DNA from: an uncultured Sedimentitalea sp.
GTDB taxonomy: Bacteria; Pseudomonadota; Alphaproteobacteria; Rhodobacterales; Rhodobacteraceae
Assembly (NCBI GenBank): GCA_947504115.1
Contig: CANNGH010000007.1
Coordinates: 61,904 to 125,903 of the forward strand
Direction: 5' to 3'
Length of the DNA: 64,000 bases
Below, piece after piece: positions 25,024 through 53,400 of the stretch. Position 1 is the first letter of the stretch, and the number at the start of each line of letters is the position of its first letter. The notes beneath the pieces were generated by a model. The model did no database searches. It saw only the letters and a program-made list of their open reading frames with translations, and was not told where the DNA came from. The position numbers and the translations under genes were made by a program.

Positions 25024-25320
25024 TCTCGTACCTAAACAAAACCGCAAAAAAAGCGCAATGAGAATATCTCAGGCACTCTGCCTTCGATTGGGCAAACTAA
25101 TTGTTCAACAACAGTGCCATTGGCTGAAGCGGCCTTTCCGTGCATCTCGCAGCATTCGGTGCTTTGGGCTCTGAGCGGCCCTTGCGCAGATGTTCGCGCC
25201 CACAGGCAGGATCATTCAATCGCAGATGCGTCACTGCGCCGCTTGCGCGTCTCGTCAGATATTCATATAAATGAATGTGACCGCATCGCGATGATGCGTG
25301 AATCTGCAAAGGATATCGAG

Positions 25321-25512: not shown

Positions 25513-25666
25513 GCCGCCAGCCGTTCCGCTGGTATCATACCGGGTTCTGCCGCTCTGTCGCGGCGTCGCCGCCCTTGCGCGCGAAATACGGCAGTTTTCC
25601 ATTCAACGCCGAATCGAAACGCTGTAGGGTCGCCCAAAGAACGAGGCACGGCAGACCCACGGCACC

Positions 25667-35826: not shown

Positions 35827-37197
35827 TCAGACCTGCTCTTCGAGAACCGGTTCGTTCTGCAGATAGACCTCGAGCGAATCGTCGAGCGCGTCTTTCCACG
35901 GCGTATGGTGCAAGGGCGCCATCGTTCCCGTGATCACCGACCTGTAGGATTTGTCGCGGAAGCGCATGATGTCTTCCTTCTTGTGATCCTTCCAGGCAAA
36001 GAACGCCTCGCAGGCGCCCTGCACGTCGAAGGCAGGGTAATCGGTTTCCGCGATCAGTTCCTTGACATAATCGCCTTGATACTGGATCGCGTCCTTGTCG
36101 CCCTCGCCCTCGTCCTCGCGTGCGATCCGCTCTTCGACATCCGCCTTGAGAACATTGATGTCCGTGGGGATTTCGATCTTGCCCATGATGGCGTCGCGGA
36201 CCCACCAGGCTTGCGCGTCGAACATGTTGAACGTGAACCACTGGTCCTGCATGCCCAGATAGAACATCTTGGTATTGTTGACGAAAACAACGCCCTTGTA
36301 CAGATCCGCCGTCGCCAGACGGTTCGTGGTCTTCAGGCGCAGATCGTCGGGCAGGAAGTTGAAGAAATGCTTGTAGCCGGTGCACAGGATGATCGCATCA
36401 ACGTCGCGCGAGGTGCCGTCCTTGAAATGCGCGGTCTTGCCGTCCAGCTTGACCAGCCCCGGAACCTCATCCCAGTTATCGGGCCATTTGAAACCCATCG
36501 GCGCGCTGCGATAGGATGTGGTGATGGATTTCGCGCCGTATTTCCAGCATTGCGAGCCGATATCCTCCGCCGAATAGGACGAACCGAGCAGCAGCAGATC
36601 CTTGCCTTCGAATTCACACGCATCGCGGAAATCATGGGCATGAAGGATGCGGCCTTTGAAATCCTCGAACCCTTCGTAATAGGGGACGTTGGGTGTGGTA
36701 AAGTGGCCCGAGGCACAGATCACGTAGTCGAAGGTTTCCTCGTAAGTGGAATCCTTGTCCTGATCGTGCGCGGTGATGGTGAAGGTCTCGTCGCTTTCGT
36801 TATAGCGCACGAAACGCACCGGCGTGTTGAACCGGATCCAGTCGCGGATGCCCGCCTTGAGCACGCGGCCCTCGATATAGTCGAACAGGACGGCGCGGGG
36901 CGGATACGAGGCGATCTGCTTGCCGAAATGTTCCTCGAACGAGTAATCGGCGAATTCCAATCCCTCTTTCGGGCCGTTGGACCACAGATAACGATACATG
37001 GACGAGTGGACCGGCTCGCCGTTTTCGTCCAGTCCGGTGCGCCAGGTATAGTTCCAGAGGCCACCCCAGTTGCTCTGCCGCTCGAAACACACGATTTCGG
37101 GAATTTCCTCGCCGTTCCGGCGCGCCGATTCGAACGCACGCATTTGGGCAAGTCCGGATGGGCCGGCACCGATGATGGCTACTCTCTTTGATGTCAT
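35827..37197 (-). CDS. tmm: trimethylamine monooxygenase (bacterial flavin-containing monooxygenase)
   Basis: ORF 35827..37212 starts at a GTG. I prefer ATG 37197 ([17 protein letters not shown]), which has GGGGAA upstream. Motifs: FAD GAGPSG, FMO motif [11 protein letters not shown] (FxGxxxHxxxF), NADPH GSSYSA, and LCTGYKH. The whole sequence is collinear with bacterial Tmm as I recall it. Confidence 0.9.
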
Positions 37198-37212: not shown

Positions 37213-37224
37213 TGGTATGAACCA
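37213..37224. promoter_or_regulatory. TGGT-N4-ACCA palindrome (candidate FadR-subfamily GntR operator) at the tmm translation start
   Basis: The sequence acTGGTATGAACCAct sits 16 nt upstream of the preferred tmm ATG, in the tmm / binding-protein divergent region. The half-site TGGTATG recurs at 39694..39700, upstream of the ABC operon. Confidence 0.3.
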
Positions 37225-37414
37225 CTATGTCAGATTTGGTTCTTTTGGTCCCCCGGAAGGTGCGATTTCTTGTACCAAAATGTCAACATATTTCCTGATC
37301 GCGCAAAATATTGGTGAAAAATGCAGCGAAAGGTGATACTTGCGGATCATGGGCCCTTCCAGTTTCGCACATAGGCTGGCGATATCGACCGCGTTCCCGC
37401 GCCTGTCCGTGGGC

Positions 37415-38650
37415 ATGAACGAGTCGGTGAACATCGGCTTTCTCGGCCCGCTCAGCGGTCCGGTGGAATCATGGGGCCTGCCGGGATTGAACGGCTGCCG
37501 GATCTGGGTGGACTGGCTGAACCGCAATGGCGGCCTGATGATCGGCGGGCGGCGCTATCCGATCGAGATCAAGGCATATGATTGCGGATATGACGGCGCG
37601 CGCGCGCTCGATGGTGCGCACGAACTGATCGAAAAACACGATATCAAGCTGCTGATGATGCTGGGCGGCGACACCTTTACGCCGCTGCGGGATTACCTGG
37701 GCGAACGGCGGATCCTGACCTCGACCCTGCTGCCCAGCGATCTCTCGCCCGACAGTCCCTATCTGATCGCCCCCAGCGAATTGCACCCGGTCTATAACGT
37801 GACGGGCGTCGAGTGGCTGGCGAAAAACCGTCCGGCGCTCAGAAAGGTTGCGCTGTGCAGTCAGAACGACGCGCTGGGGTTGCCGTCTCTTGCCACCTAC
37901 CGCGCAGCCTTTGCGGCCGAAAACATGCCGCTGGTCAAACAGATCCAGTATGACGCCGACCGCGCCGATGCGGCGGCGATCGTGCAGCCGATGCTGGAGG
38001 CCGACCCCGATATCCTGTGCTGGTGCACCAGCCACACACCGATGGTGCACGCGATGACGGAATACGCGCATGCGCAAGGGTTCAAGGGTCAGATTCTTTC
38101 GTGCACCATGGATCAGTACGATCGTCTGGTGGACCGCACCTCTGCCGAATTCATGGAGGATGTGGTGTTCCAGTTTCCGGATTTCGACGATCCGCTGCTG
38201 CGGGAAAAGGCATTCTTCTTCAATCAGCCGCATGTCTTCTTCGAGGAATACAACCGCCGCTTTCCCGGCACCTGGAGCGCGGTAAGCTGGGAATACGCGG
38301 CCATCCTGGACATCTGGCACAGCGCCGTCGAGAAGTGCAACAGCATCGGGTCGGGTTCGGTGCTGGCGGCGATGAAGCAACTGGGCCACGTCACCCATGC
38401 CTTCGGTCCGGCGCGCTGGTGGGGGCAGGACATGTTCGGCATCGACAATGCGCTGATCGGCGATTGGCCGGTGGTCACCATCCGGAACGGCAAGGCCCGG
38501 ATCGTCGGGTTCGGATCGCTTCCCGATTGGCTGGCGCGTCACGGGGATTTGCTGAAACAGGAAATGATGGCGCTGGGCCAGCTTTGGGATCAACGCGTTT
38601 CACGCGGCCACGGGTATATCAGCCAGCGCGATCGATCCGCGGTGCCGTGA
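37415..38650 (+). CDS. LivJ/AmiC-fold (type I) solute-binding protein paralogue WITHOUT an export signal (predicted cytoplasmic)
   Basis: ORF 37340..38650. ATG 37415 (MNESVNIGFLGPLSGPVESWGLPGLNGC…) aligns exactly with the mature N-terminus of the exported paralogue at 39851. The 25-aa upstream extension has no hydrophobic core. Confidence 0.75.
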   Translation: MNESVNIGFLGPLSGPVESWGLPGLNGCRIWVDWLNRNGGLMIGGRRYPIEIKAYDCGYDGARALDGAHELIEKHDIKLLMMLGGDTFTPLRDYLGERRILTSTLLPSDLSPDSPYLIAPSELHPVYNVTGVEWLAKNRPALRKVALCSQNDALGLPSLATYRAAFAAENMPLVKQIQYDADRADAAAIVQPMLEADPDILCWCTSHTPMVHAMTEYAHAQGFKGQILSCTMDQYDRLVDRTSAEFMEDVVFQFPDFDDPLLREKAFFFNQPHVFFEEYNRRFPGTWSAVSWEYAAILDIWHSAVEKCNSIGSGSVLAAMKQLGHVTHAFGPARWWGQDMFGIDNALIGDWPVVTIRNGKARIVGFGSLPDWLARHGDLLKQEMMALGQLWDQRVSRGHGYISQRDRSAVP

Positions 38651-39382
38651 TCACATATCCTGCAGCAGCAGCTTCTGCTCTTCGATCAGATGCAGCTTGA
38701 TAAGCTCGACCGCGCGCTCGACATCGCGCGACGCGATGGCGTTGAACAACGAGTTGTAGCGTTGCTGGTATTCCAGAATGCGTTTGGGCGTCAGATGCCG
38801 TCGCAGCAGCGTCGTGCGGAAACTGATACGGCAGGATTCGATGGCAAGCTCATAGCATGATGCCAGCAACGGATTGCGGGTTCCGGCGGCGATCTTGCGA
38901 TAGATGTTTTCCTCGCATTTCACGAAGGCAGACACATCGGTGCGCACGTTTTCGATCTCGGACATCAGCTGTTCCAGTTGCCGGATCTCGCGCGGGGTCA
39001 TGTTGATGACCGCAAGCCGCACCATCTCGGGTTCCAGAATGCCGCGCACCACCAGGTGATCCAGCGGGCTGGTCTCAAAGGCGATCGAATGATCCGCCGG
39101 CTCTGCCGGTGTGGGTTCGGACCGATAGGTAACGAAACTGCCGCTGCCCGGACGGCGCCTGATCACGTTGCGCGCCTCAAGGACATCCAGCGCCTCGCGC
39201 ACCGTATTGCGCGCGACACCCAATTCCGACGCCAGCGCGCGTTCGGATGGGAGGCGTGTATCCAGCGGATATTCCTCGTTCTTTATCTGGGCGAACAATC
39301 GGTCCAGCACCACCTGCACCGTCGCGCCGACAGAATGCGTTGCGATGATCTGCGAGGTCATTTCGGGGGTGTCGGTGCTCAT
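38651..39382 (-). CDS. GntR family transcriptional regulator (FadR/FCD subfamily)
   Basis: ORF 38651..39631 trimmed to ATG 39382 (MSTDTPEMTSQ…). The wHTH is LPSERALASELGVARNTVREALDVLEARNVI, followed by an all-helical FCD-type C-terminal domain. Its stop codon directly abuts the stop of the 37415 gene. Confidence 0.85.
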   Translation of the reverse strand: MSTDTPEMTSQIIATHSVGATVQVVLDRLFAQIKNEEYPLDTRLPSERALASELGVARNTVREALDVLEARNVIRRRPGSGSFVTYRSEPTPAEPADHSIAFETSPLDHLVVRGILEPEMVRLAVINMTPREIRQLEQLMSEIENVRTDVSAFVKCEENIYRKIAAGTRNPLLASCYELAIESCRISFRTTLLRRHLTPKRILEYQQRYNSLFNAIASRDVERAVELIKLHLIEEQKLLLQDM

Positions 39383-39850
39383 TCCTGGGCCTTGAGTAAA
39401 ATTATCCGCCCGCCGATGCCCTGCGAATCTTGACAGGCTGGCAAGACGAGTTTGCAGCATTTGTCGAATCTGGTCCAGTGACGTCGCGAAAAATGCGACT
39501 TCCCGGTGCCAATCCGTGAACCGCCTTGCCGGAAAACGGTCCTGCGGCGGTATGGAATCGGTCCGCCTTTTGAAACTGGATTCCGCTCGAAAATGCCTGC
39601 TTTTCAACTGTTTCAACGCTGAAGACACCAAGGAAAGGCAACAACAGCAAAGGCTAACGGCAGGTGGCGCAATTAAATTTCTTGTCAGAAAATTGGTATG
39701 CTGCTAGCGTTTTCGTCAGAGGAACCGCGGGAATTTCCGTTCCGGCTGTAGAAACTGGTGCAGCACCCAAGGCTGCACCCTAGATCGGTCTGAAATTGGT
39801 TTCCAAAAAAATCCACGCAAAAAATTGCGGGAACCAACTGGGAGAAGAAA

Positions 39851-41143
39851 ATGATTACCAAGGCTTTCAACGGCGGCTTTTCCCGCCGCATGTTTTTAAA
39901 ATCGAGCGCCGTGACGGCGCTGGGCGCGGCGCTGCCGAATGTCACGCTGGCCGCCGGCGAGACCATCAAGATCGGATTCCTGGCCCCGCTGACCGGCGCG
40001 GTCGCGGCATGGGGCACGCCCGGCCTTGAAGGGTGCAAGATCTGGGCCGAGCGGGTGAACGAAGCGGGCGGCATCAAGCTGGAAGATGGCGAACACAAGA
40101 TCGAGTTCGTCTCCTATGACAACGAATATGATCCCGCCAAGGCCCGCACCGGTGCCACGAAACTGATTCGCGAGGACGGTGTCAGCTTCGTCATGATGCT
40201 GGGCGGGGACACCTGGCCGGGGGTGCAGCCGGTCGCGGACAAGACGGGCATGCTGTTCTCGACCCTGCTGCCATCGGATCTGTCGCCAGACACGCCGACC
40301 CTTCTGGCGCCGACCGAGGTGCACCCGATCTATCTGGTGACCGGGGTGGAATGGCTGGCCGAGAACCGGCCCGAGTTGAAAACCGCCGTGATGTGCGCGC
40401 AGGACGATGCGCTGGGCCTGCCCTCGGTCGCCACGTATCTGGCCGCGTTCGAGGCCGCCGGGATCGAGATGCAGGACGAACCGTTGCTGTTCGACCCCGC
40501 AACCACCGATTTCGCGCCGGTGGTGACGCGCCTGCTGTCCACCAACCCCGATATCGTCTGTCTGGACACCTGCTATTCCGACTATGTCCACCCGATCTGC
40601 GAGCAACTGTTCCAGCAGGGGTTCAAGGGGCAGATCATATCGGCGACGGCGGATTTCTATGACCAGATCATCGCCAAGACCTCCAAGGAATTCATGGAAG
40701 GGTTCATCTTCCAGTTCCCCGATTTCGACGATCCGGCGCTGAATGCCGACAACATCAACTTTCCCGATCCCAACGGTTTCTATGCCGAATACAACAAGCG
40801 GTATCCGGGCCAGTGGGGCGCGGTCAGCTGGGAATACGCGTCGATCATGGAGCTTTGGAAGGCCGGCGCCGAAAAGGCGGGCAGCGTGGATCCCGACGCG
40901 GTTCTTGCCGCGATGCAGGAGGGTGGCAAGGGCCAGCACGCCTTCGGCGAGGCCGAATGGTGGGGCGAGGAGCTGTTCGGCATCAACAACGCGCTGGTCG
41001 GTGACTGGCCGGTCGTGGTGATCGAGGACGGCAAGGCGACCATCAAGGGGTTCAAGTCGATTCCGGCCTGGTATGACAAGCATGGCGATCTGCTGATCAA
41101 GCACATGACAGCCTATGACCAGATGTGGAACCAGCGAAGCTGA
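39851..41143 (+). CDS. ABC transporter substrate-binding protein (LivJ/amide-urea type), exported
   Basis: 430 aa, with GGAGAA upstream of the ATG. The Tat-like signal is FSRRMFLKSSAVTALGAALPNVTLAAG. The mature domain is collinear with the 37415 protein. Confidence 0.9.
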   Translation: MITKAFNGGFSRRMFLKSSAVTALGAALPNVTLAAGETIKIGFLAPLTGAVAAWGTPGLEGCKIWAERVNEAGGIKLEDGEHKIEFVSYDNEYDPAKARTGATKLIREDGVSFVMMLGGDTWPGVQPVADKTGMLFSTLLPSDLSPDTPTLLAPTEVHPIYLVTGVEWLAENRPELKTAVMCAQDDALGLPSVATYLAAFEAAGIEMQDEPLLFDPATTDFAPVVTRLLSTNPDIVCLDTCYSDYVHPICEQLFQQGFKGQIISATADFYDQIIAKTSKEFMEGFIFQFPDFDDPALNADNINFPDPNGFYAEYNKRYPGQWGAVSWEYASIMELWKAGAEKAGSVDPDAVLAAMQEGGKGQHAFGEAEWWGEELFGINNALVGDWPVVVIEDGKATIKGFKSIPAWYDKHGDLLIKHMTAYDQMWNQRS

Positions 41144-41217
41144 ATTGACACGCGGCTCCACCGGCGGCGCATGCTCCCTGCCTGCGTCGCCGACATTTGC
41201 AGAAATCGAGAATCGAT

Positions 41218-42087
41218 ATGTTTGAACTTCTGGCCCAAACCGGCCTGAACGCAGTCTATGCTGCCAGCTATATTTCACTGGTCGCGGTCGGGCTGGTTCT
41301 GATCTTCGGCGTCATGGGCGTCGTCAATTTCGCGCATGGCGAATTGTTCATGGCGGGATCATACGTCGTCGTCGCGCTATATGCCGACAGGTTCGTTCCC
41401 TTCTTCGTCGCGGTGGCGGCGGGGCTGGTCTTTGTCGGCCTTCTGGGCCTGTTGATGGAGCGCGCGTTGTTCCGCCCCCTGCGGGACAACCCGCTGGGCG
41501 GGCTGGTCGCCTCGATCGGGTTCCTGATGATCCTGCAGGCGCTGGCGGTGCTGGGCTTCGGTGTGCGGATGGAGCACATCCCCCCGGTGACGCAGGAGGT
41601 GATCGCCTTTTCCGACCGGGTGCGTTTGCCGGTTGCGCGGCTTTACGTGATCGTCGCCGCAATCGTGATGCTGTCGCTGCTATGGTACTTCCTCAAACGC
41701 ACGCGGTTCGGCTGGGCCTTGCGGGCCTCGGCGCAGGATCCGCAGGCGGCGGCGCTTCAGGGCATATCGGTGACGCTGACCGCCAAGATCGCGATGTTCA
41801 TCGGCGCGGGCTTTGCCGGATTGGCCGGGGCGCTGACGGCGCCGCTGGTCTCGGTGAACCCATATATGGGCCACTCGATCATCGTGACCGCCTTCATCGT
41901 GATCATCGTGGGCGGCGTCGGATCGCTGGAAGGGGCGGTGCTGGCCTCGATCGTCTATGCGTTCGTCCACACCTTCGTCACCACGTTTTACGACGGCGTG
42001 CTTGCCGACATCACCGGATTGGCGCTGATGCTGATCGTGCTGATCGTCAAGCCCACCGGCCTGTTCGGGAGTGCGGATCGTGCGTAA
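41218..42087 (+). CDS. branched-chain-amino-acid-type ABC transporter permease (LivH-like)
   Basis: ORF 41197..42087 trimmed to ATG 41218 (MFELLAQTGLNAVYAASYISLVAVGLVLIFGVMGVVNFAHGE…), a typical LivH N-terminus. Confidence 0.9.
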   Translation: MFELLAQTGLNAVYAASYISLVAVGLVLIFGVMGVVNFAHGELFMAGSYVVVALYADRFVPFFVAVAAGLVFVGLLGLLMERALFRPLRDNPLGGLVASIGFLMILQALAVLGFGVRMEHIPPVTQEVIAFSDRVRLPVARLYVIVAAIVMLSLLWYFLKRTRFGWALRASAQDPQAAALQGISVTLTAKIAMFIGAGFAGLAGALTAPLVSVNPYMGHSIIVTAFIVIIVGGVGSLEGAVLASIVYAFVHTFVTTFYDGVLADITGLALMLIVLIVKPTGLFGSADRA

Positions 42088-43057
42088 CCTCATCATCTGG
42101 ATCGCTCTCGCCGCAGGGCTGATCGTCCTACCCAATGTCCTCAGCTTCTCGCAGCAGGAAGTGCTGGTTTTCCTGACGATCAACATCCTGTTGGTCGCCT
42201 CCTACCGCCTGCTGACGCTGACCGGCGAATGGTCGCTGGGGCATGTGGTCATCATGGGCGTGGGCGCCTATGCCTCGGCGCTGCTGACGAAGACCACGGG
42301 CCTTCCGGTGCCGCTGGGCATCCTTGCCGGCGGCATGGTCGCGGCGCTGATCGCACTGGCGCTCAGCTATCCGCTGTTCCGCATGAAGGGGTTCTATTTC
42401 CTGATCGGCAGCTTTGCCGCCGGTGAAATCATCCGCCTGTTGTGGAAACGTTTCCGCGACCCGTTCGGCGGCACCAAGGGCCTCAAGGGGATCGACCCGA
42501 TGCCGGATTTCTCGGTCGGGTTCTACAATTTCGATTTCTTCGAGCCGACCAGCTATTTCTATTTCGCGGCCATCGTCGTGGGCGTCTGCCTGTGGATCCT
42601 GTGGCGGATCGAGAAATCGCCGGTCGGGCTGACCTTTCACGCGGTCCACTGGCAGGACAAGCTGGCGCAGGCGTCGGGCGTCAATCTGCGCGCCTATCGC
42701 ACGCTGGCCTTCGTCATCGCCTCCGGGTTCGCGGGGATCTCGGGCGCGCTGCTGGCGCATTACATCGGAACGATCAACCCCAACAGCTTTGACGTCGAGG
42801 TGATGGTGTTCGTCCTGACATGGGCCATCGTGGGTGGCACCAGCACGTTCTACGGCCCGATCCTTGGCTGCGTCGTGCTGACCATCCTGAACGAGGTCGT
42901 GCTGCGCGAACTGGGCCTCGAACAGACGCGGCCGCTGATCTACGGGCTGATCCTGATCCTGTCGATCCTGTTCATGCCGAACGGTCTGGAAAGCATCGTG
43001 CAGAAATTCACCCGCCGGAAAGAAGCCGGTCTCATGCGTCCGGAGGAAGCGAAATGA
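42071..43057 (+). CDS. branched-chain-amino-acid-type ABC transporter permease (LivM-like)
   Basis: 328 aa with a GTG start that overlaps the livH-like 3' end. …LLTLTGEWSLGHVVIMGVGAY… is LivM-like. Confidence 0.85.
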   Translation: MRIVRNLIIWIALAAGLIVLPNVLSFSQQEVLVFLTINILLVASYRLLTLTGEWSLGHVVIMGVGAYASALLTKTTGLPVPLGILAGGMVAALIALALSYPLFRMKGFYFLIGSFAAGEIIRLLWKRFRDPFGGTKGLKGIDPMPDFSVGFYNFDFFEPTSYFYFAAIVVGVCLWILWRIEKSPVGLTFHAVHWQDKLAQASGVNLRAYRTLAFVIASGFAGISGALLAHYIGTINPNSFDVEVMVFVLTWAIVGGTSTFYGPILGCVVLTILNEVVLRELGLEQTRPLIYGLILILSILFMPNGLESIVQKFTRRKEAGLMRPEEAK

Positions 43058-43821
43058 CATCTCTTTTGCAGGTAAAGGACCTGACCATGCGCTTTGGCGG
43101 CCTGACCGCCGTGGACGGCCTGAACTTCAAGGTCGAGAAGGGCACCATTCACGGCCTGATCGGACCGAACGGAGCGGGCAAGACCACGACCTTCAACATG
43201 ATATCGGGGTTTTACACACCGTCGGACGGCGCGGTGCTGTTGCGGGGCGAGGATATTTCCGGCCTTCAGATGCACGAGGTCGCCCGCCGCGGCGTGGTGC
43301 GCACGTTCCAGCATTCGACCCTGTTCGCCGAACTGACCGTGCTGGAAAACGCGCTGGTCGGCACGCACATGCCGTTTCGCCCGAACATCTTTGCCGCGAT
43401 CTTCGGCTGGGACAGGGACGACCGCGATGGCGCCGATGCCCGCGCCCGCGATGCGCTGCGCTTCTTCGGTCTCGGCGATCTGATGAACGAGCACGCCGGA
43501 GATCTGTCGCACGGTCATCAGCGGGCTTTGGGCATGGCCGTGGCCTATGCCAGCCATCCCGACATCATCCTTCTGGACGAACCCTTTACCGGCATGAACC
43601 CCGAAGAGACCAAGCACATGATGGGCCTGATGAAACGCCTGTGCAGCGACGGCATCACCATCCTGCTGGTGGAACACGACATGCAGGCGATCATGGGTCT
43701 GTGCGACAACATCACCTGCATGAGTTTCGGGAAGTTCCTCGCCGAGGGCGGACCGGCCGAAATCCGCAACCACCCCGCCGTGATCGAAGCCTACCTGGGA
43801 GGCGCGCGCCATGTTGCTTGA
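43054..43821 (+). CDS. ABC transporter ATP-binding protein (LivG-like)
   Basis: ORF 42820..43821 trimmed to ATG 43054 (MTSLLQVKDLTMRFGGLTAVDGL…), overlapping the upstream stop as ATGA. Walker A is GPNGAGKTT. The signature region is LSHGHQRAL and Walker B is ILLDEP. Confidence 0.9.
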   Translation: MTSLLQVKDLTMRFGGLTAVDGLNFKVEKGTIHGLIGPNGAGKTTTFNMISGFYTPSDGAVLLRGEDISGLQMHEVARRGVVRTFQHSTLFAELTVLENALVGTHMPFRPNIFAAIFGWDRDDRDGADARARDALRFFGLGDLMNEHAGDLSHGHQRALGMAVAYASHPDIILLDEPFTGMNPEETKHMMGLMKRLCSDGITILLVEHDMQAIMGLCDNITCMSFGKFLAEGGPAEIRNHPAVIEAYLGGARHVA

Positions 43822-44518
43822 AATGCGCGATATCAGCGTGAATTACGGCAAGATCTCGGCGATCCGCCACATCACGATCAACGTCCCCGAGGGCGAAATC
43901 GTCACCATCATCGGCGGCAACGGCGCGGGCAAGACGACAAGCCTGCGCGCCATGTCGGGGATGCTGCCCCTGAAAAGCGGCGAAATCCATTTCGACGGCA
44001 AGCGGATCGACGGGATGCCGCCGTACAAGATCGTATCGCATGGCATCGCCCATGTGCCCGAGGGTCGGCGCATCTTTCCCGACATGACGGTCGAGGAAAA
44101 CCTGCGCACCGGGGCGTTCCTGCGCAAGGACAAGGCCAAGGTCGAAAAGGATCTCCAGGACGTGTTCGACCGCTTCCCGCGCCTGCGCGAGCGGCGGCGA
44201 CAGCGGGCGCAGACCATGTCGGGCGGCGAACAGCAGATGCTGGCGATCGGGCGCGCGCTGATGTCCGACCCGCGCATATTGCTTATGGACGAGCCGTCGA
44301 TGGGCCTGGCCCCCGTCATCGTCGAGGAAATCGCCGTGATCATCGAGGAAATCAACGCCCGCGGCCTGTCGGTGGTTCTGGTCGAACAGAACGCGGTGCT
44401 GGCGCTGGAACTGGCGAACCACGCCTACGTTCTGGAATCCGGCAACATGGCACTGGAGGGACCGGCAAGTGAGCTTCATGACAACGAACATGTCCGGGCG
44501 GCGTATCTGGGGCTTTGA
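43811..44518 (+). CDS. ABC transporter ATP-binding protein (LivF-like)
   Basis: 235 aa. Walker A is GGNGAGKTT, the signature is MSGGEQQML and Walker B is LLMDEPS. Confidence 0.9.
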   Translation: MLLEMRDISVNYGKISAIRHITINVPEGEIVTIIGGNGAGKTTSLRAMSGMLPLKSGEIHFDGKRIDGMPPYKIVSHGIAHVPEGRRIFPDMTVEENLRTGAFLRKDKAKVEKDLQDVFDRFPRLRERRRQRAQTMSGGEQQMLAIGRALMSDPRILLMDEPSMGLAPVIVEEIAVIIEEINARGLSVVLVEQNAVLALELANHAYVLESGNMALEGPASELHDNEHVRAAYLGL

Positions 44519-45083
44519 CCGCGACGACCGCGAGATGCAGGCGGCCCGCGCCGCTGGCTGGTCGCGCGCCGATCTGGTCTGGGAACGGTTGATGGAGGCG
44601 GCGAACGAGCGTTACGGGAACGGCCACGCCGTCCGGTCCGCCGCGCTGTTCCGGCAGGCCGATCTGCTGGCGCGGCTGGCCTTTGCGCGCGACGATCTGC
44701 GCGGTGCCGCCTCGGCGGCCAGCCGGGCGCGGATCGCCATGGCGCAGGGAAAGCTGGCAAAGGCGCAGGCCCTGCAATGCCGTGCACTGAGCCTCTGGCG
44801 CAATGCGCCCGCGCAGATTGCCCTGATGAAGATCGCGCCGCGCGCGCGCAGTTCCCTGTTCCATCTGCGCATGGAGGTGAAACACCGCGACACGTTCCAC
44901 GACAACATGCGCACCCGGTTCGCCCGCTTCGCCGCCGAAACCGAAGAAACCCTGCGCGGCCTGACCACCCCTGCCCCGCCGCCGCACCGGCATTTCGCCC
45001 GCTGGCGCGGCGAACGGCCCGGCATGTATGACGACACCCGCAAGATCATCGGCGCCTGCCTGCTGATCGTCGACTTACCGTAA
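44490..45083 (+). CDS. hypothetical protein (Ala/Arg-rich, predicted soluble and helical), last gene of the ABC operon
   Basis: ORF 44469..45083 has high third-position GC in frame. I recognise no family. Candidate starts are GTG 44469, ATG 44478, ATG 44490 and ATG 44535; the first three overlap the livF-like 3' end. A strong terminator follows. Confidence 0.55.
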   Translation: MSGRRIWGFDRDDREMQAARAAGWSRADLVWERLMEAANERYGNGHAVRSAALFRQADLLARLAFARDDLRGAASAASRARIAMAQGKLAKAQALQCRALSLWRNAPAQIALMKIAPRARSSLFHLRMEVKHRDTFHDNMRTRFARFAAETEETLRGLTTPAPPPHRHFARWRGERPGMYDDTRKIIGACLLIVDLP

Positions 45084-45086
45084 GCA

Positions 45087-45117
45087 AAAGCCCCGGAATT
45101 TCTTCCGGGGCTTTTTC
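45087..45117. terminator. bidirectional intrinsic terminator between the ABC operon and tdm
   Basis: AAAA-GCCCCGGAA-tttc-TTCCGGGGC-TTTTT: a perfect 9-bp stem with an A-run on one side and a T-run on the other. Confidence 0.8.
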
Positions 45118-45135: not shown

Positions 45136-47514
45136 TCAGTCGTAGTTGCCCTTGACCCGCTCTTTCTTGGGATCGAAATGCGGATAGGGAACGATCGTCG
45201 CCTTCAGACGCTTCTGATCGCCGTCAAGCTGGCCGACCTCGACCTCGGTGCCGTATTCGGCATGGGCGATGTCCATCCGCGCGAGCGCGATGACCTTGCC
45301 CAGGATCGGGGATTTCATCGCCGATGTGATCTCGCCGATCTGCGGCTTGCCGATATGGACGCAGTTGCCCGGCACCGGCACGATGCCGCCTTCCAGATCC
45401 AGCCCGACCATCTTGCGCTGCGGATGTGCCTTGCGGCGCTCCAGCGCGGCGCGGCCGATGAAATCGTCTTCCTTGGTTTTCAGCGGCACGGTAAAGCCGA
45501 TCCCGGCCTCCATCGGATCGGTCTGGTCGTTGAACTCGGACCCGGCGAAGATCAGCCCGGCCTCGATGCGCAGCATGTCGAGCGCGGCCAGCCCCAGCGG
45601 GATCATGCCCATCGGCTCTCCGACCTTCCAGATCGCGTCGAACACGGCTTCGGCATCCTTGGGGTGGCAGAACACCTCGTACCCCAGTTCACCGGAATAG
45701 CCGGTGCGGCTGACGACGACCGAGGGGCCGTGGAAATCGCCGATACGACCGATGGTCAGGCGGAACCAGTCCAGTTCCTCCAGCGTCGAGCGCTCCGGCG
45801 GGGTCCAGATCACTTCTTTCAGGATGTCGCGCGACAGCGGACCCTGCACGGCGACGTTGCAAAGATGGTCGGTCGAGGCCCGCACCCAGACATTGAGGTT
45901 ACGTTCGACCGCCTGCTTGCGCAGCCACAGGCCCGACAGGTCATTGCCCCCGATCCAGCGGAAGTTGGTTTCGCCCAGACGGTACACCGTGCCGTCATCG
46001 ATCATGCCGCCATGCTCGTAGCACATCGCGGTATAGACGATGCCGCCGACCGACAGCTTCTTGATGTTGCGGGTCACGCAAAGCTGCATCAGTTCCTCGG
46101 CGTCGGGGCCGGTCACCTCGTATTTGCGCAGCGGCGACAGGTCCATGATCACGGCCTTTTCGCGCGCCGCCCAGTATTCGGCGATGGCGCCGTGATTGCT
46201 CATCTGGTTGGGCAGCCAATAGCCCTGATATTCGACGAAATCCCGGGTGTGCCGCGCAAAGCAATCGTGAAAACCGGTCTTTTTCGTTTCTTCCATATCC
46301 GCCTCCGGAAGTTTCCGCCAGCCGATGGAGCGGCTGAATTCATTGGATTTATCGTATGTCCGGACCTGAATGTCCGTGGGATTCCAGCCGTTTGCCGGGT
46401 CGATGTCGCAGGGGCACGCCGTCGAGACGCAGACCAGATCGGTCATTGCGCGCAGCAGGACGTAATCGCCGGGACGCGAATAGGGATCGTCCATGGTGAT
46501 CGCGTGGTTGTCGTCCAGCATCGTGTTGAAGAAAAAGTTGATCGCCGGCCAGCCGCCGCGCGGACGCACGCCATAGCGGTCCATCTCGATGTTGATGTTG
46601 TCCGAACAGTTGATATGGCCGGGATAGCCCAGATCCTCGTAATAGCGCGCGGTGCAGGACAGCCCGAAGGTGTCATGCCGCCCGACGGTGTCCTGCACGA
46701 TCTCGACCAGACGCTCCTGATCCGAGGAGCAGTAGCGCGAGAACAGCCCCGGATTGGGATAGAGCGACCCCATCAGCGACCGCGTCGTGGTCGGATCGAT
46801 CTCGCGCTCGAGCCCGTTGTCCAGCGCGCGCATCGAAAACGCCTGAAAGTCGGAGCATTCGCGGCCCTGAACGTCCAGCACCTGGATATACTGGCCCTTG
46901 CGGACCTCGTAGGCGCGGGCCTCGCCGGGCAGGATGTTCATGTCGATCAACGGATCGGCCAGCGGTTCGGGCGCCAGAAGCTTGCCCTTTTCGTTGCCCG
47001 GATTGGCGCGACGGACATAAAGCGCGACCTCGGTCGGCGCCCATTGCTCGTGCGGCTCCATCGGCGTGCCGGGGGCGCAGACGATCAGCAGACCGTCGCT
47101 GGTGGCGGTAAAGGTCTGCTGATCGCCGGCGCGCGATCCGTCGCCGAAAACCAGCGTGCCGTCGGCGCGACCGATATCGAAACCGGCGGCATCCAGCGCG
47201 CGCAGCACCTTGGCGCCGGACTTGTCGCCCATCAGCGCGGCCTTCAGGCCATCGGGATCGCGCCCGCCGCGCGCACCGATCATGCCGGCATCCGAAGTGC
47301 CGTCGGGCGCGAAGAACACCATCTCGACCGGCTGCAGGCCTTCGCGGTCCTGAATGGTGATCTCGTCACCTTGCGAAATCCGCACGGCTCGGCTACCACC
47401 GCCGGGGATCGGATGTCGTTCCACCCCGTGGGGCAGGATCGGCAAGCCGTGCGTCACCACGCCGGCACGCTCATAGGGATTCTGGAAGATTACGTTGGTG
47501 TTCATGGTATTCAT
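45136..47514 (-). CDS. tdm: trimethylamine-N-oxide demethylase (DUF1989 N-terminal domain + GcvT-like tetrahydrofolate-binding C-terminal domain)
   Basis: The ORF reaches 47559, but ATG 47514 (MNTMNTNVIFQNPYERAG…) has GAGGGGGA 8 nt upstream. The N-terminal ~400 aa form a Cys-rich DUF1989-type region (…CSDNINIEM…VCVSTACPCDIDP…). The C-terminal ~380 aa are an aminomethyltransferase fold (…SRTGYSGELGYEVF…). This two-domain architecture is that of Tdm. Confidence 0.85.
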   Translation of the reverse strand: MNTMNTNVIFQNPYERAGVVTHGLPILPHGVERHPIPGGGSRAVRISQGDEITIQDREGLQPVEMVFFAPDGTSDAGMIGARGGRDPDGLKAALMGDKSGAKVLRALDAAGFDIGRADGTLVFGDGSRAGDQQTFTATSDGLLIVCAPGTPMEPHEQWAPTEVALYVRRANPGNEKGKLLAPEPLADPLIDMNILPGEARAYEVRKGQYIQVLDVQGRECSDFQAFSMRALDNGLEREIDPTTTRSLMGSLYPNPGLFSRYCSSDQERLVEIVQDTVGRHDTFGLSCTARYYEDLGYPGHINCSDNINIEMDRYGVRPRGGWPAINFFFNTMLDDNHAITMDDPYSRPGDYVLLRAMTDLVCVSTACPCDIDPANGWNPTDIQVRTYDKSNEFSRSIGWRKLPEADMEETKKTGFHDCFARHTRDFVEYQGYWLPNQMSNHGAIAEYWAAREKAVIMDLSPLRKYEVTGPDAEELMQLCVTRNIKKLSVGGIVYTAMCYEHGGMIDDGTVYRLGETNFRWIGGNDLSGLWLRKQAVERNLNVWVRASTDHLCNVAVQGPLSRDILKEVIWTPPERSTLEELDWFRLTIGRIGDFHGPSVVVSRTGYSGELGYEVFCHPKDAEAVFDAIWKVGEPMGMIPLGLAALDMLRIEAGLIFAGSEFNDQTDPMEAGIGFTVPLKTKEDDFIGRAALERRKAHPQRKMVGLDLEGGIVPVPGNCVHIGKPQIGEITSAMKSPILGKVIALARMDIAHAEYGTEVEVGQLDGDQKRLKATIVPYPHFDPKKERVKGNYD

Positions 47515-47775
47515 GACGGCGTCCCCCTCGATAGGGTCATAGGTGACTTCAAAGGCCATTCACGGCGCTGGCCGACGCAGAGGTTGCAGGCGACCGAATC
47601 GTTTTTCGGCCTGCCCCCAATGTGGCAACCAATTGGCTTTTCTCTGAATGTTTTTTTGATATTCTCTGCCCCAGTTAATTAGCGCCAGAGGGCCGTTCGC
47701 CATGTGTTTTCCATCGTGCACCATGCCTGCCATCGAATCGCGGGACGAACGGCAAATCCGGGGGCGTCTGGCAGC

Positions 47776-50071: not shown

Positions 50072-50359
50072 ATGATCATCAATCACCCGCTTCTTGGACC
50101 GCGCGACGCGCAGGAATTCACCTATCTGGGCGATGCATCCCTGATCGACCGCCCGGATTGGCAGGCCGAGGACGCGCAGCAGCAGTTCTATGAATACACC
50201 TACCTGCGCGAGAACCCCGCAGGCGAGCATCGGGAGCTCTGGTTTCACGAGGCCGGCGACCGGTCCTGGCTTGTGGTGACGCGCAACACGCTGACCCACG
50301 AAATCTCCAACGTTGAAATGGCCAGTGACGTGGCCCGCGCACGGGGGCGCAGCAAATGA
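50072..50359 (+). CDS. soxD: sarcosine oxidase delta-subunit family protein (SoxD/MgdB)
   Basis: Lies within ORF 49940..50359. ATG 50072 gives MIINHPLLGPRDAQEFTYLGDASLIDRPDW…, a 95-aa protein at the typical position between the beta and alpha subunits. Confidence 0.8.
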   Translation: MIINHPLLGPRDAQEFTYLGDASLIDRPDWQAEDAQQQFYEYTYLRENPAGEHRELWFHEAGDRSWLVVTRNTLTHEISNVEMASDVARARGRSK

Positions 50360-53300
50360 CCTATACGAACCGGGCAGACGGCAGCCAGATCAACCAGCCC
50401 GCCGCGTCGGGCGTGCGCGCTCAGTCAAGCGGCGGCTCCGGCAAATCGCAGGTCAACCGGCTGCGCGGCGGCCAGATCGACCCGCAGCAAACGCTCAGCT
50501 TCAGCTTTGACGGCAAGAAGTATCAGGGCCATCCCGGCGATACGCTGGCCTCGGCCCTGCTGGCCAACAACGTGCGCCTGATGGGGCGGTCGTTCAAATA
50601 TCACCGCCCGCGCGGCGTTCTGACATCGGGCAGCGCCGAACCGAACGCGCTGGTCGAATTGCGCACCGGCGCGCGGCAGGAACCCAACACCCGCGCCACC
50701 ACCGCCGAATTGTTCGACGGGCTGGTGGCGAAAAGCCAGAACCGCTCGCCCTCGCTCAAGTACGACTTCATGGCGATCAACGACCGCTTCTCGAACTTCC
50801 TGACGGCGGGGTTCTACTACAAGACCTTCATGTGGCCCAAGGCGTTCTGGGAAAAGCTGTATGAACCGATCATCCGCAAGGCCGCCGGCCTTGGCTCGCT
50901 GTCGTTTGAGGACGATCCGGACGAATATGACAAGGGCTTCCTGCACTGCGATCTGCTGATCGTCGGCGGCGGTCCTTCGGGTCTGGCAGCGGCCCTGACG
51001 GCCGGGCGCGCCGGCGCTCGGGTGATCCTTGCGGACGAGGATTTCATGTTCGGCGGCCGGCTGAACGGCGAAACCTTCGACATCGGCGATCAGATCGGGC
51101 GTGAATGGGTCGCGGCGGCGGTGGCGGAATTGCATGCCATGCCCAATGTGCGCTGCATGTCCCGCACCACGATCAACGGCGCGTTCGATCACGGCATCTA
51201 CAGCGCGGTCGAGCGGGTCTCGGACCATCTGCCAGTGCCGCCCGAGGGCAAGCCGCGCCAGATCCTGTGGCGCATCTACACCAAGCGCACGCTGCTTTGC
51301 GCCGGTGCCATCGAGCGGCCGATCGCCTTTGAAAACAACGACCGTCCCGGTATCATGCTGGCCAGCGCCATGCGCGACTATGCCAATCGCTGGGCGGTGA
51401 CGGCGGCACAGAAGGTGGCCGTTTTCACCAACAACGACGACGGGCACCGCACCGCTGTCGATCTGATCGCCAAGGGCGTCAAGGTCGCCGCCGTGATCGA
51501 CACCCGCACCGATGCCCCCCGTATCGCCGATTGCGAATTGCTGGCGGGCGCGCAGGTGATCGACACTGCCGGTCGTCTGGGGCTGAACTTCGTCAAGGTC
51601 CGGTTGGCCGACGGAACCGACCGCAACATCGAATGCGGCGCTCTGGGCGTTTCGGGTGGCTGGAATCCCAACGTGCACCTGTCCTCCCACCAGCGCGGCC
51701 GCCCGGTCTGGAACGATCAGATCGCGGCCTTCGTGCCGGGACCGGACGGCCCTCCGGGATTGACCGCAGCCGGCGCGGCGAACGGCGATTTCTCGACCGC
51801 AGCCGCGTTGAAAACCGGCAGCGCGCAGGCCGCTGCGGCGCTGAGCGATCTCGGCATGAAGGCCAGCACCATCGACCTGCCCGAGACCGAGGATGCGCAA
51901 CCCAACCAGACTCCGTTCTGGTATGTCAAATACGGCAAGGGCCGGGCCTGGATCGATCAGCAGAACGACGTCACCGTGAAGGACGTCAAGCTGGCCCATC
52001 AGGAGAATTACCGCTCGGTCGAGCATCTCAAGCGTTACACGACGCTGGGCATGGCGACCGATCAGGGCAAGACCAGCAACATGGGCGGCCTGGCGATCAT
52101 GGCCGAACTGACCGGCCAGTCGATCCCCGAGACCGGCACCACGATCTTCCGCCCGCCCTACAGCCCCGTCCCCATGGGGACATGGGGCGGACGCGCGCGC
52201 GGCAAGCATTTCCACCCGACGCGCGAGACCCCGAGCCACAAATGGGCGGTCGAGAACGGCGCGACATTCGTCGAGGTCGGCAACTGGCTGCGCGCGCAGT
52301 GGTTCACCAAGCCGGGTGAAACCCATTGGCGCGAAAGCGTGGACCGCGAGGTTCGGGCCGTGCGCGAATCGGTCGGTGTCTGCGATGTGACGACGCTGGG
52401 CAAGATCGACGTGCAGGGCACGGACGCGGCGCAGTTCCTCAACAAGGTCTATGCCAACGCGTTTGCGAAACTGGCCGTCGGCAAGACCCGCTATGGCCTG
52501 ATGCTGCGCGAAGATGGCGTTGCCATGGATGACGGCACCACCGCCCGTCTGTCCGAGCATCATTTCGTGATGACGACGACCACCGCCAACGCGGTGAATG
52601 TCTATCGTCACATGGAATTCGTGCGCCAGTGCCTGTTCCCGGACATGGACGTGCAACTGATCTCGACCACCGAGGCCTGGGCGCAATACGCCGTTGCCGG
52701 ACCGAACAGCCGCAAGCTGCTGCAAAAGATCGTGGACCCGGAATTCGACATCTCGAACGAGGGCTTCGAATTCATGGCCTGCCGCGAGATCACCGTTTGC
52801 GGTGGCCTGCGTGCGCGCCTGTTTCGGATTTCCTTCTCGGGCGAAATGGCCTTCGAACTTGCCGTTCCGACCCGCTATGGCGATGCGCTGATGCGGCGGC
52901 TGATGGAGGAAGGCAAGGAATTCGATGTCGTCGCCTATGGCACCGAAGCCCTGGGCGTGATGCGGATCGAAAAGGGTCACGCCGCCGGCAACGAGCTGAA
53001 CGGCACGATCAACGCGCTGAACCTCGGGATGGGGCGGATGGTGTCCAAGAAGAAGGACAGCATCGGCTCGACCATGTCGGAGCGCGAGGGCATGAACCTG
53101 CCCGATGCGCTGAACATGGTCGGCTTCAAGCCGGTCAACAGCGCCGACAAGGTGACGGCCGGTGGCCATCTGATGACCAAGGGTTCGCCCGTAGATGCGG
53201 CCCACGATCAGGGATATGTCACCTCGGCATGCTACTCGCCGATCCTGAATTCCTCGATCGGGCTGGGTTTCCTCAAGGACGGGGCCAATCGGATGGGCGA

Positions 53301-53400
53301 AATCGTGAGCCTTGTCAGTCCGTTGACCGACCTGAATGTAGATGTCGAAGTCGTCAATCCGCAGTTCGTGGATCCAGAGGGAGTACGTGTCCGTGCATGA
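50356..53400 (+). CDS. soxA: sarcosine oxidase alpha-subunit family protein (SoxA/MgdC) with a GcvT-like folate-binding C-terminus
   Basis: 1014 aa. The dinucleotide motif is LIVGGGPSGLAAALTAGRAG. The C-terminal aminomethyltransferase fold includes (…ISFSGEMAFELAV…). Its start overlaps the soxD stop as ATGA. Confidence 0.9.
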   Translation: MTYTNRADGSQINQPAASGVRAQSSGGSGKSQVNRLRGGQIDPQQTLSFSFDGKKYQGHPGDTLASALLANNVRLMGRSFKYHRPRGVLTSGSAEPNALVELRTGARQEPNTRATTAELFDGLVAKSQNRSPSLKYDFMAINDRFSNFLTAGFYYKTFMWPKAFWEKLYEPIIRKAAGLGSLSFEDDPDEYDKGFLHCDLLIVGGGPSGLAAALTAGRAGARVILADEDFMFGGRLNGETFDIGDQIGREWVAAAVAELHAMPNVRCMSRTTINGAFDHGIYSAVERVSDHLPVPPEGKPRQILWRIYTKRTLLCAGAIERPIAFENNDRPGIMLASAMRDYANRWAVTAAQKVAVFTNNDDGHRTAVDLIAKGVKVAAVIDTRTDAPRIADCELLAGAQVIDTAGRLGLNFVKVRLADGTDRNIECGALGVSGGWNPNVHLSSHQRGRPVWNDQIAAFVPGPDGPPGLTAAGAANGDFSTAAALKTGSAQAAAALSDLGMKASTIDLPETEDAQPNQTPFWYVKYGKGRAWIDQQNDVTVKDVKLAHQENYRSVEHLKRYTTLGMATDQGKTSNMGGLAIMAELTGQSIPETGTTIFRPPYSPVPMGTWGGRARGKHFHPTRETPSHKWAVENGATFVEVGNWLRAQWFTKPGETHWRESVDREVRAVRESVGVCDVTTLGKIDVQGTDAAQFLNKVYANAFAKLAVGKTRYGLMLREDGVAMDDGTTARLSEHHFVMTTTTANAVNVYRHMEFVRQCLFPDMDVQLISTTEAWAQYAVAGPNSRKLLQKIVDPEFDISNEGFEFMACREITVCGGLRARLFRISFSGEMAFELAVPTRYGDALMRRLMEEGKEFDVVAYGTEALGVMRIEKGHAAGNELNGTINALNLGMGRMVSKKKDSIGSTMSEREGMNLPDALNMVGFKPVNSADKVTAGGHLMTKGSPVDAAHDQGYVTSACYSPILNSSIGLGFLKDGANRMGEIVSLVSPLTDLNVDVEVVNPQFVDPEGVRVRA

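Follow-up and report, generated by a model that had tools for sequence, protein, structure and literature searches.

In Pseudomonas aeruginosa, the AmiC-AmiR pair consists of a cytoplasmic amide sensor with the LivJ fold and an antiterminator, and in the NasS-NasT system a cytoplasmic NrtA-like protein that senses nitrate or nitrite is combined with an ANTAR regulator. In Escherichia coli, the periplasmic trimethylamine N-oxide (TMAO)-binding protein TorT signals to the sensor kinase TorS. Methylated amines rank among the major sources of nitrogen in the sea and give rise to climate-active gases. Repression of the trimethylamine monooxygenase gene (tmm) by the regulator TmoR was reportedly first described by Lidbury et al. 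in 2016. TmoR of Ruegeria pomeroyi (SPO1553) represses tmm and binds its promoter, Ptmm; deletion of tmoR raises tmm expression 4.4-fold and the DNA-binding domain binds Ptmm with a dissociation constant of about 5 µM (PMC13390433). In that study only residues 1-100 of TmoR were purified, the operator was not defined, and the effectors were assigned from pathway mutants and not from binding, with dimethylamine (DMA) as the primary effector, TMAO as a minor one and no effect of trimethylamine (TMA) (PMC13390433). The tmoR gene adjoins tmm, the two being "usually separated by a gene of unknown function" (PMC13390433, June 2026). In R. pomeroyi this intervening gene is SPO1552, whose product has been labelled 'uncharacterized HAAT family ... 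periplasmic binding protein' (PMC4744692), and SPO1551, SPO1552 and SPO1562 share a late-bloom gene set in a co-culture study (PMC9723723).

Here we describe a methylated-amine locus on a 64,000-nucleotide (nt) stretch of DNA from an uncultured Sedimentitalea sp. (contig CANNGH010000007.1, positions 61,904 to 125,903 of the forward strand), which is referred to as the window throughout. Between tmm and the TMAO demethylase gene (tdm), the window encodes an orthologue of SPO1552 (substrate-binding protein 1, SBP1; 67% identity to SPO1552), a convergent GntR regulator, and an ATP-binding cassette (ABC) importer of the LIV type with a second substrate-binding protein, SBP2. The region consists of two modules: module A comprises tmm, SBP1 and tmoR, and module B comprises SBP2, the permeases, the ATPases and a TPR-like protein. 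We propose, with a probability of roughly 0.42, that SBP1 acts as a methylamine receptor inside the cytoplasm, in functional coupling with TmoR, and that the SBP2 operon encodes a methylated-amine importer. The location and ligand of SBP1, its coupling to TmoR and the substrate of the importer are all predicted from sequence. TmoR and its repression of tmm are already known; the candidates newly singled out here are the SPO1552-family protein and the importer.

The order and orientation of module A are the same as those of SPO1551-1553 in R. pomeroyi, with tmm on the minus strand, the binding-protein gene on the plus strand and the GntR gene on the minus strand. The R. pomeroyi locus differs in having tmoXWV upstream and amt downstream, where the window has the LIV-type importer. 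SBP1 shares the type I fold with AmiC (Foldseek match to 1qnl, template modelling scores 0.67/0.77) and resembles it in its predicted lack of a working export signal, in being encoded in the catabolic cluster that it would control and in the small nitrogenous ligand that is expected. However, the partner of AmiC is an ANTAR antiterminator encoded in the same operon, whereas the neighbour of SBP1 is a convergent GntR/FCD DNA-binding repressor. The NasS-NasT system follows the same logic, in that a transporter-type binding protein acts as a cytoplasmic sensor, but its binding protein is of the type II class and both regulator and ligand differ. TorT is exported and works with a histidine kinase across the membrane, whereas SBP1 is predicted to stay in the cytoplasm and is encoded next to a one-component repressor.

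SBP1 carries a conserved leader that resembles a decayed Tat signal

A first-pass annotation of the window had placed the start of SBP1 exactly at the mature-domain boundary (37415) and had described the protein as signal-less. This start is wrong and the true start is the ATG at 37349, since the 22-amino-acid leader thereby added is universal among the loci, the DNA preceding it shows no conservation and four loci have another residue in place of the inner Met. The leader (consensus xxSSFAH(R/Q)LA(V/I)SSALPRLSVGM, with Gln at position 9 in 34/80) was present in 80/80 genomic loci, and the database relatives of SBP1, which are 68-89% identical, are nearly all called at about 433 amino acids with the same N-terminus. 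The DNA 5' of the leader in these 80 loci is not conserved and contains frequent stop codons. In L067, L075, L077 and L078 the Met equivalent to 37415 is replaced by Thr or Ala and therefore cannot be the start. Synonymous changes account for 58% of the codon differences in the leader, compared to 66% in the mature part; the predominance of synonymous changes indicates that the peptide, and not only the DNA, is under selection. The frame of SBP1 is open in 79/80 loci, L072 having in-frame stops within the leader.

Export of SBP1 was judged by hand-applied rules, i.e., the presence of a twin arginine (RR) and the length of the longest uncharged run, and not by a signal-peptide predictor. The twin arginine typical of twin-arginine translocation (Tat) signals was found in 0/80 SBP1 leaders versus 24/24 SBP2 signals, and the longest uncharged run measured 4-9 amino acids in SBP1 leaders versus 12-19 in SBP2 signals, the run in SBP1 being closed by a near-invariant Arg18. 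MAFFT nevertheless aligns the SBP1 leader with the Tat signal of SBP2. In this alignment both paralogue groups have F6 and P17 without exception, F6 being the Phe of S-R-R-x-F-L-K and P17 belonging to a downstream Leu-Pro that is kept, and small polar residues in SBP1 occupy the position of the twin arginine of SBP2. The leaders of the Paracoccus proteins (SLAQRLAVxGxLPRNLHRA) are more polar and charged still. In the AlphaFold model of SBP1, residues 1-21, with a predicted local distance difference test score (pLDDT) below 50, and residues 421-433 are disordered.

The upstream extension had been considered before, starting from position 37340, and had been dismissed for want of a hydrophobic core or cleavage site. 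It does lack the twin arginine and has only a short uncharged run, but the extension itself is real and its last 22 codons are kept throughout. The protein called "signal-less" is very probably not exported. It should not be called signal-less, however, as its conserved leader is a degenerate Tat signal, albeit one that is not expected to support export. The leader is most simply seen as a Tat signal that decayed from that of an exported ancestor, which would make SBP1 a periplasmic-type protein re-used in the cell interior. Because such a leader could not target export, SBP1 very probably stays in the cytoplasm.

tmm, SBP1 and tmoR recur together, with or without the transporter

The genomic surroundings of SBP1 were compared by mapping the window proteins onto loci picked by SBP1 in one genome per species. 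The divergent neighbour of SBP1 was tmm in 68/76 loci, and the convergent neighbour was tmoR in 71/79 loci, with a median of 51 nt between the two genes. In contrast, the SBP2 operon was located at most 10 kb from SBP1 in only 22/52 loci, and SBP1 and tmoR were found without the SBP2 operon in 25/52 loci. The first-pass annotation had put forward the exported transporter protein and its cytoplasmic copy as a paired arrangement. Such a pair is not a conserved unit, as the transporter is more than 10 kb away or absent in 30/52 loci. The expected co-occurrence with methylated-amine genes did hold for the member predicted to be non-exported, given its adjacency to tmm, and the evolutionary ties of SBP1 are to tmm and the GntR regulator, not to the transporter.

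The triplet tmm, SBP1, tmoR spans three alphaproteobacterial orders. It was found in the Rhodobacterales (Roseovarius, Leisingera, Primorskyibacter, Pontibaca, Mameliella, Ruegeria and Paracoccus), in the Hyphomicrobiales (Aminobacter, Mesorhizobium, Ensifer and Borborobacter) and in Aquibaculum. The gene order in R. pomeroyi is tmoXWV-tmm, SBP1, tmoR, amt, and no LIV-type transporter is present at that locus. Paracoccus plasmids carry tdm-tmm, SBP1, an FCD regulator and gmaS (54-57% identity), also without a LIV-type transporter beside them. In Pontibaca salina, the closest genome (SBP1 85% identity), the SBP2 operon is located on another contig beside glnB-glnA. SBP1 with tmm but without tmoR was observed in L036, L037 and L065. 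In four loci of Roseovarius spp. (L067, L075, L077 and L078), SBP1 lies on the same strand directly 3' of a gene for a 516-amino-acid protein of the AGCS type, which resembles alanine/glycine:cation symporters, and neither tmm nor tmoR is nearby.

SBP1 and SBP2 share nearly all motifs of the predicted ligand loops

The AlphaFold 2 model of SBP1 (pLDDT 84, predicted template modelling score 0.83) has the fold of a type I periplasmic binding protein. A Foldseek search with this model returned 922 PDB matches at E<=0.001, and those listed are all type I substrate-binding proteins, with UrtA at the top followed by LivJ/LivK and aromatic-acid binders, at 14-19% identity. AmiC was considered as a special structural neighbour and rejected, since 1qnl ranked 47th with 16% identity and was no closer than UrtA or LivJ; a PDB sequence search gave no match of SBP1 to AmiC at E<=0.001. 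The AmiC-style sensor proposed earlier thus stands as an analogy, and not as kinship in sequence or structure. Because the PDB sequence search yielded marginal matches only (best E 4e-5), the ligand cannot be inferred by homology.

The binding proteins were compared column by column, using 80 SBP1-type and 28 SBP2-type sequences. A total of 118 columns are invariant and identical across both groups, 18 are invariant within each group but different between them, and 189 are at least 95% conserved in SBP1. The shared invariant residues include the GGD, LLPSDLSPD, FQFPDFDD, SWEY and WWG motifs and comprise 25 aromatic and 12 acidic residues, which would suit a site that holds a small methylated ammonium ion by cation-pi and ionic contacts. 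The motifs of the predicted ligand loops are nearly all identical between SBP1 and SBP2. We infer that SBP1 and SBP2 have a common ligand, or closely neighbouring ones, within the TMA/DMA/TMAO series. Six of the 18 group-specific changes are found in residues 225-239 (W225L, S228C, P231D, M232Y, A235P and Y239Q), a segment that would correspond to the loop and helix following a strand of domain 2, the part that contributes to the cleft in LivJ-type proteins.

The neighbouring regulator is the TmoR orthologue and has an altered FCD site

The first-pass annotation had recognized the regulator next to SBP1 as a GntR/FCD protein. This was correct (Pfam GntR 1.8e-17, FCD 2e-21), but the protein is not an anonymous family member: with 65% identity over 227 amino acids to TmoR of R. 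pomeroyi and the same synteny, it is the orthologue of this tmm repressor. Alignment with LldR (2DI3) places E158, Y162, Y210 and H232 of TmoR at the positions of the FCD metal ligands, which are D/H/H/H in canonical FCD domains. These four residues are conserved in 64-70 of 70 TmoR orthologues. The E/Y/Y/H residues could form an aromatic pocket that accepts methylated amines; alternatively, the usual ligand site could have been lost. E/Y/Y/H was rejected as a general mark of GntR proteins paired with a binding protein, as some regulators of a third paralogue lineage (see below) keep D/H/H/H.

The spacer between tmm and SBP1, which is about 150 nt long and serves as the shared control region of both genes, contains a palindrome (TGGTATGAACCA; Table 1) that is the only exact TGGT-N4-ACCA match in the intergenic DNA of the cluster. 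The longer TTGGT-N4-ACCAA 14-mer was found exactly in 44/81 tmm-SBP1 spacers and with at most one mismatch in 55/81, against a background of 0.015 per 200 nt. TTGGT/ACCAA half-sites occur in the spacer at 2.07 versus a background of 0.16 per 100 nt, i.e., 13 times background. TTGGT-N4-ACCAA is the classic shape of the operator of FadR-type GntR proteins, and for this reason the palindrome is predicted to be the TmoR site.

SBP1 as a candidate partner of TmoR, and alternative roles

In the proposed mechanism, SBP1 would descend from the exported binding protein of a tmm-linked importer, its decayed leader being unable to target export. Residing in the cytoplasm, it would bind the same kind of small methylated amine as SBP2 and would supply or tune ligand sensing for TmoR. 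Either ligand-bound or free SBP1 would alter the hold of TmoR on the tmm operator, which amounts to an AmiC-like logic with a GntR partner, and module B, with SBP2 and the importer, would bring a methylated amine, TMA being favoured, into the cell. The recurrence in three lineages of a pair consisting of a binding protein without twin arginine and a GntR regulator supports the coupling of SBP1 and TmoR. In addition, the purely genetic assignment of the TmoR effectors leaves room for SBP1 in the sensing step. The SPO1552-family protein is therewith a candidate for the missing intracellular methylamine sensor. A more specific form of this proposal, in which SBP1 binds DMA, TMAO or TMA and, as the ligand-sensing subunit of TmoR, determines through protein contact how far the repressor occupies the tmm operator, with the former signal perhaps serving as a docking element, is conceivable but doubtful. 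If true, it would represent the first two-protein sensor made of a binding protein and a GntR regulator, and it would explain how abundant marine and soil Alphaproteobacteria turn on TMA oxidation. In the literature we found no description of a missing signal or sensor role for SPO1552, and nothing on SPO1554-1558 or on AmiC-like partners of GntR regulators.

Several observations weigh against a coupling of SBP1 to TmoR. In 8/79 loci SBP1 has no tmoR next to it, and in four of these it follows an AGCS-type symporter gene in place of tmm. SBP1 and tmoR are convergent and not co-transcribed. Among 36 loci that were picked by SBP2 and have enough upstream sequence, 15 combine tmm and the transporter without the paralogue and without a GntR gene, so that regulation is not everywhere dependent on SBP1. 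The FCD domain of TmoR is intact, and its pocket could bind amines directly, which would make SBP1 dispensable for sensing. Finally, we know of no GntR regulator under the control of a binding-protein partner.

Some of these points lead to another role for a cytoplasmic SBP1, that of a high-affinity trap or hand-over protein which holds back TMA or another methylated amine, a substrate that can partly cross the membrane, and feeds it to Tmm while TmoR senses its effectors directly through its own FCD domain. We consider this main alternative less likely, but it draws on the same evidence for non-export and for a conserved pocket, and it accommodates both the conserved E/Y/Y/H pocket of TmoR and the close association with tmm, from which SBP1 is divergent in 68/76 loci and with which it is listed in an expression table (PMC9723723). 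It also fits the loci in which SBP1 is kept with tmm and without tmoR, and the position of SBP1 directly after an AGCS-type gene in four others looks like substrate handling. A role as carrier does not explain why a binding protein is paired with a convergent GntR gene in three lineages, down to about 41% identity between the regulators, and cytoplasmic solute carriers of the type I fold are, as far as we know, not an established class.

The two remaining explanations are both unlikely. SBP1 might still be exported, by an atypical signal or by hitch-hiking, and act as a second or orphan binding protein that offers a different methylated amine to the LIV-type importer or to one encoded at another place. 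The protein is full-length with all binding-loop motifs kept, a small-residue S-V-G motif persists at the old cleavage position of the leader, and the clustering of group-specific changes at residues 225-239 could mean an altered specificity; orphan binding-protein genes are common and the transporter can lie elsewhere in the genome, as in Pontibaca salina. We nevertheless regard export as quite improbable, given the absence of the twin arginine, the short run closed by Arg18 and the even more polar leaders in Paracoccus, the absence of a LIV-type permease beside the triplet in R. pomeroyi and Paracoccus, and the persistence of the degenerate leader across three orders while every SBP2 retains a textbook Tat signal. 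The idea that SBP1 is what is left of a duplicated transporter gene, decaying and without function of its own, would account for the lost export signal and for the loss of the neighbouring transporter in many genomes. It is barely credible for a gene whose frame is intact in all but one of 80 loci, whose products remain 68-89% identical across orders, in which synonymous changes predominate and of which even the leader is conserved.

The SBP2 operon is a candidate methylated-amine importer

For SBP2, the export signal reported by the first-pass annotation was confirmed. It is a Tat signal (FSRRMFLKSS...AAG/ETIK, with the predicted cleavage site between AAG and ETIK), and (S/T)RRxFL was found in 24/24 orthologues. 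In the loci examined, SBP2 is always encoded alongside LivHMGF-type permease and ATPase genes. The importer shares its architecture with the Urt and Liv importers, i.e., one type I binding protein combined with a pair of BPD_transp_2 permeases and a pair of ATPases. It differs from these in its tmm/tdm context, its extra TPR-like gene, the 14-19% identity to PDB entries and its NCBIfam scores, which are below the cutoffs for UrtA (37.5 versus 492.75), UrtB (189.7 versus 250.3), UrtC (96.7 versus 296.2), UrtD (203 versus 304), UrtE (228 versus 286) and LivJ (49 versus 477). The top NCBIfam matches of the permeases were UrtB and LivM, each below cutoff, and neither SBP1 nor SBP2 scored above the cutoff of any NCBIfam family. 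Identity with the urea importer UrtABCDE was rejected because no component reaches its equivalog cutoff.

Identity with the TMAO importer TmoXWV, an ABC system of the same island that is induced by methylated amines (PMC13390433, PMC8918994), was rejected as well, since TmoX is of the OpuAC/ProX type whereas SBP2 is a Peripla_BP_6 protein. A TmoXWV-like system is present together with the LIV-type importer in one genome cluster, and TmoX/TmoW-like genes are found in several metagenome loci. The presence of both in the same loci implies different substrates, and the LIV-type importer is thus probably not a redundant TMAO porter.

A link of the importer to tmm/tdm was apparent independently of SBP1. 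Of 35 metagenome loci of at least 12 kb that were picked by SBP2, 28 carry tmm or tdm. Of the 36 SBP2-picked loci that extend far enough upstream, 15 have tmm immediately next to the operon of the Tat-signal SBP2 in divergent orientation, and 12 have a paralogue without twin arginine plus a convergent GntR gene upstream. The LIV-type importer is probably a high-affinity HAAT-family system for a methylated amine, with TMA as the favoured substrate. TMA is favoured because the operon pairs with tmm, because a TmoXWV-like system is present in the same loci and because amt, which fills the same slot after tmoR, is never found there together with SBP2 (80 loci). This distribution hints that the amt gene provides an alternative entry route for methylamine. 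The HAAT importer beside tmm is accordingly put forward as a candidate entry route of TMA/DMA for cells without a known carrier; no description of a LIV-type TMA/DMA importer of this kind was found in the literature. In five loci (L081, which is R. pomeroyi, and L070, L073, L079 and L080), amt, a gene of the ammonium-transporter family, follows tmoR at the position of the LIV-type importer in the window. In Mesorhizobium and Borborobacter (L022, L023, L025 and L028) and in many metagenome loci (such as L124, L134 and L143) the importer is rearranged, the binding protein and permeases being encoded apart from the ATPases. In some cases the ATPase genes are convergent and share their strand with the TPR gene.

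Upstream of the SBP2 operon, a promoter-like element ending in CTGCTAGC and a leader hairpin precede the start codon (Table 1). The CCGC..GCGG hairpin and CCAACATGGGAGA are kept across SBP2 loci and had no Rfam match; the hairpin may be a translational or mRNA-stability element. No exact copy of the tmm-type palindrome was present upstream of the SBP2 operon in any locus, although half-sites are enriched there. Since this region has half-sites only, control of the importer by TmoR is not claimed.

The two binding proteins are ancient paralogues

SBP1 and SBP2 are 50% identical over 393 amino acids (E 7e-152). Pairwise identities resolve two clean clades, corresponding to SBP1 and SBP2, and an exported outgroup at 39-43% identity, a pattern that points to an ancient paralogy and not to a local duplication. 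A third lineage of paralogues shares 55-60% identity with each of the two proteins, lacks the twin arginine and has the leader ..F..LAVSASLP(K/R)... It is followed by a convergent GntR gene, the product of which is only 40-42% identical to TmoR, and is located upstream of an SBP2-type operon. The loci of this lineage are from metagenomes (L105, L109, L119, L126 and L137). The history of the family may have started with an exported binding protein and its importer beside tmm, the binding-protein gene having been duplicated long ago. One copy would have lost its export signal and become linked to a GntR regulator, after which the transporter would have become dispensable at that position.

On plasmid p5 of Rhizobium sp. 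NZLR1 (L087), a Tat-exported family member with 39-43% identity is encoded with its own LIV-type permeases and ATPases, with a hypothetical gene at the end. Its neighbours are two choline dehydrogenase genes, an aldehyde dehydrogenase gene and a molybdopterin oxidoreductase gene. Other small amines or amino alcohols may be the substrates of the family at large.

Gene inventory of the locus

Genes between 35.8 and 47.6 kb of the window were called with Pfam and NCBIfam profiles, using the NCBIfam equivalog thresholds as cutoffs (Table 1). Much of what the first-pass annotation had described for this region was recovered. The two collinear binding proteins both match Peripla_BP_6 over the whole profile (Pfam E values of 1.4e-45 for SBP1 and 4.2e-52 for SBP2), and all sequence blocks that it had quoted as shared are present in both. 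The stop codon of SBP1 (TGA, 38648-38650) directly abuts that of the GntR gene (38651-38653), tmm and tdm bracket the unit with scores above their cutoffs, and the GntR and FCD domains and the LivH/M/G/F-like genes are present according to Pfam and NCBIfam. The last open reading frame, described as an unknown protein followed by a strong terminator, indeed has no Pfam match and is followed by a hairpin with a T-run.

Table 1. Features of the tmm-tdm region, in coordinates of the window.
Feature	Position	Strand	Basis and remarks
tmm, trimethylamine monooxygenase	35827-37197	-	NCBIfam NF058570, 820 bits versus cutoff 675; divergent from SBP1
Palindrome TGGTATGAACCA, TTGGT-N4-ACCAA type, predicted TmoR operator	37213-37224	.	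Few bases from tmm start
Half-sites TTGGTTCTTTTGGT and ACCAAAATGTCAAC in tmm-SBP1 spacer	37236-37249 and 37274-37287	.	Columns conserved in 81 aligned spacers
SBP1 leader, 22 amino acids, MGPSSFAHRLAISTAFPRLSVG	37349-37414	+	Conserved; putative vestigial Tat signal without twin arginine
SBP1, HAAT-type binding protein, predicted non-exported, 433 amino acids	37349-38650	+	Pfam Peripla_BP_6; SPO1552 orthologue
tmoR, GntR+FCD repressor gene	38651-39382	-	Pfam; convergent with SBP1
Promoter-like element TTTCTTG-N16-CTGCTAGC, 5' of transporter operon	39678-39708	+	Conserved in 25 aligned SBP2 upstream regions
Hairpin CGCAAAAAATTGCG, then CCAACTGGGAGA ribosome-binding site, in SBP2 5' leader	39816-39845	+	Conserved across loci
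SBP2, Tat-signal binding protein of ABC importer	39851-41143	+	Pfam Peripla_BP_6; signal 39851-39958
LivH/LivM-type permeases, two	41218-42087 and about 42071-43057	+	Pfam BPD_transp_2 twice
ABC ATPases, two	LivG-like 43054-43821, LivF-like 43811-44518	+	Pfam/NCBIfam
TPR-like protein, about 204 amino acids, all-helical, cytoplasmic	44469-45083	+	No Pfam match; overlaps LivF-like 3' end
Bidirectional intrinsic terminator	45086-45116	.	9-bp GC hairpin and T-run, between TPR gene and tdm
tdm, TMAO demethylase	45136-47559	-	NCBIfam NF053776, 1220 bits versus cutoff 1100

The start of the LivG-like gene overlaps the permease stop as ATGA (43054). In all operons with the gene order of the window, the TPR-like gene comes next after the ATPase gene. 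A search with its product gave 295 homologues, some of which are named TPR proteins; 17/51 homologues match TPR_12 and 6/51 match BTAD. Its AlphaFold 2 model is all-helical (pLDDT 87) and had no PDB match at E<0.1. The conserved C-terminal motif of the protein (PRARSSLFHLRME..HRDTFHDN..RWRGERP..DDTRK) corresponds to no Pfam family and to no fold in the PDB. As a speculation, the TPR-like protein could serve the ATPases, or the SBP1 leader, as an adaptor.

The terminator downstream of this gene reads AAAA-GCCCCGGAA-TTTC-TTCCGGGGC-TTTTT. An Rfam scan of 35-48 kb returned nothing real, a weak match to isrO being the terminator hairpin.

The region is flanked by genes for an acyl-CoA synthetase and an amidase, by glyA and by DAO/sarcosine-oxidase-like genes, a gene content that marks the window as a methylated-amine catabolic island. 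Neither a tmoX-type gene nor an amt gene was found within the 64-kb window. A sarcosine-oxidase-alpha-like gene is located at 50356-53400, and genes with a GCV_T-type aminomethyltransferase domain are found there and near 59 kb, the latter being a GCV_T-type gene on the minus strand (58978-59994) with a 33% tdm-like match. The GCV_T-type genes at 50.4-53.4 and about 59 kb probably make up the island's N-methylglutamate dehydrogenase part. In a nucleotide search of a plasmid collection, only tmm and tdm were matched, at 71-78% identity. The G+C content of the window falls to 0.565 at 24001-26000 and is 0.60-0.69 elsewhere.

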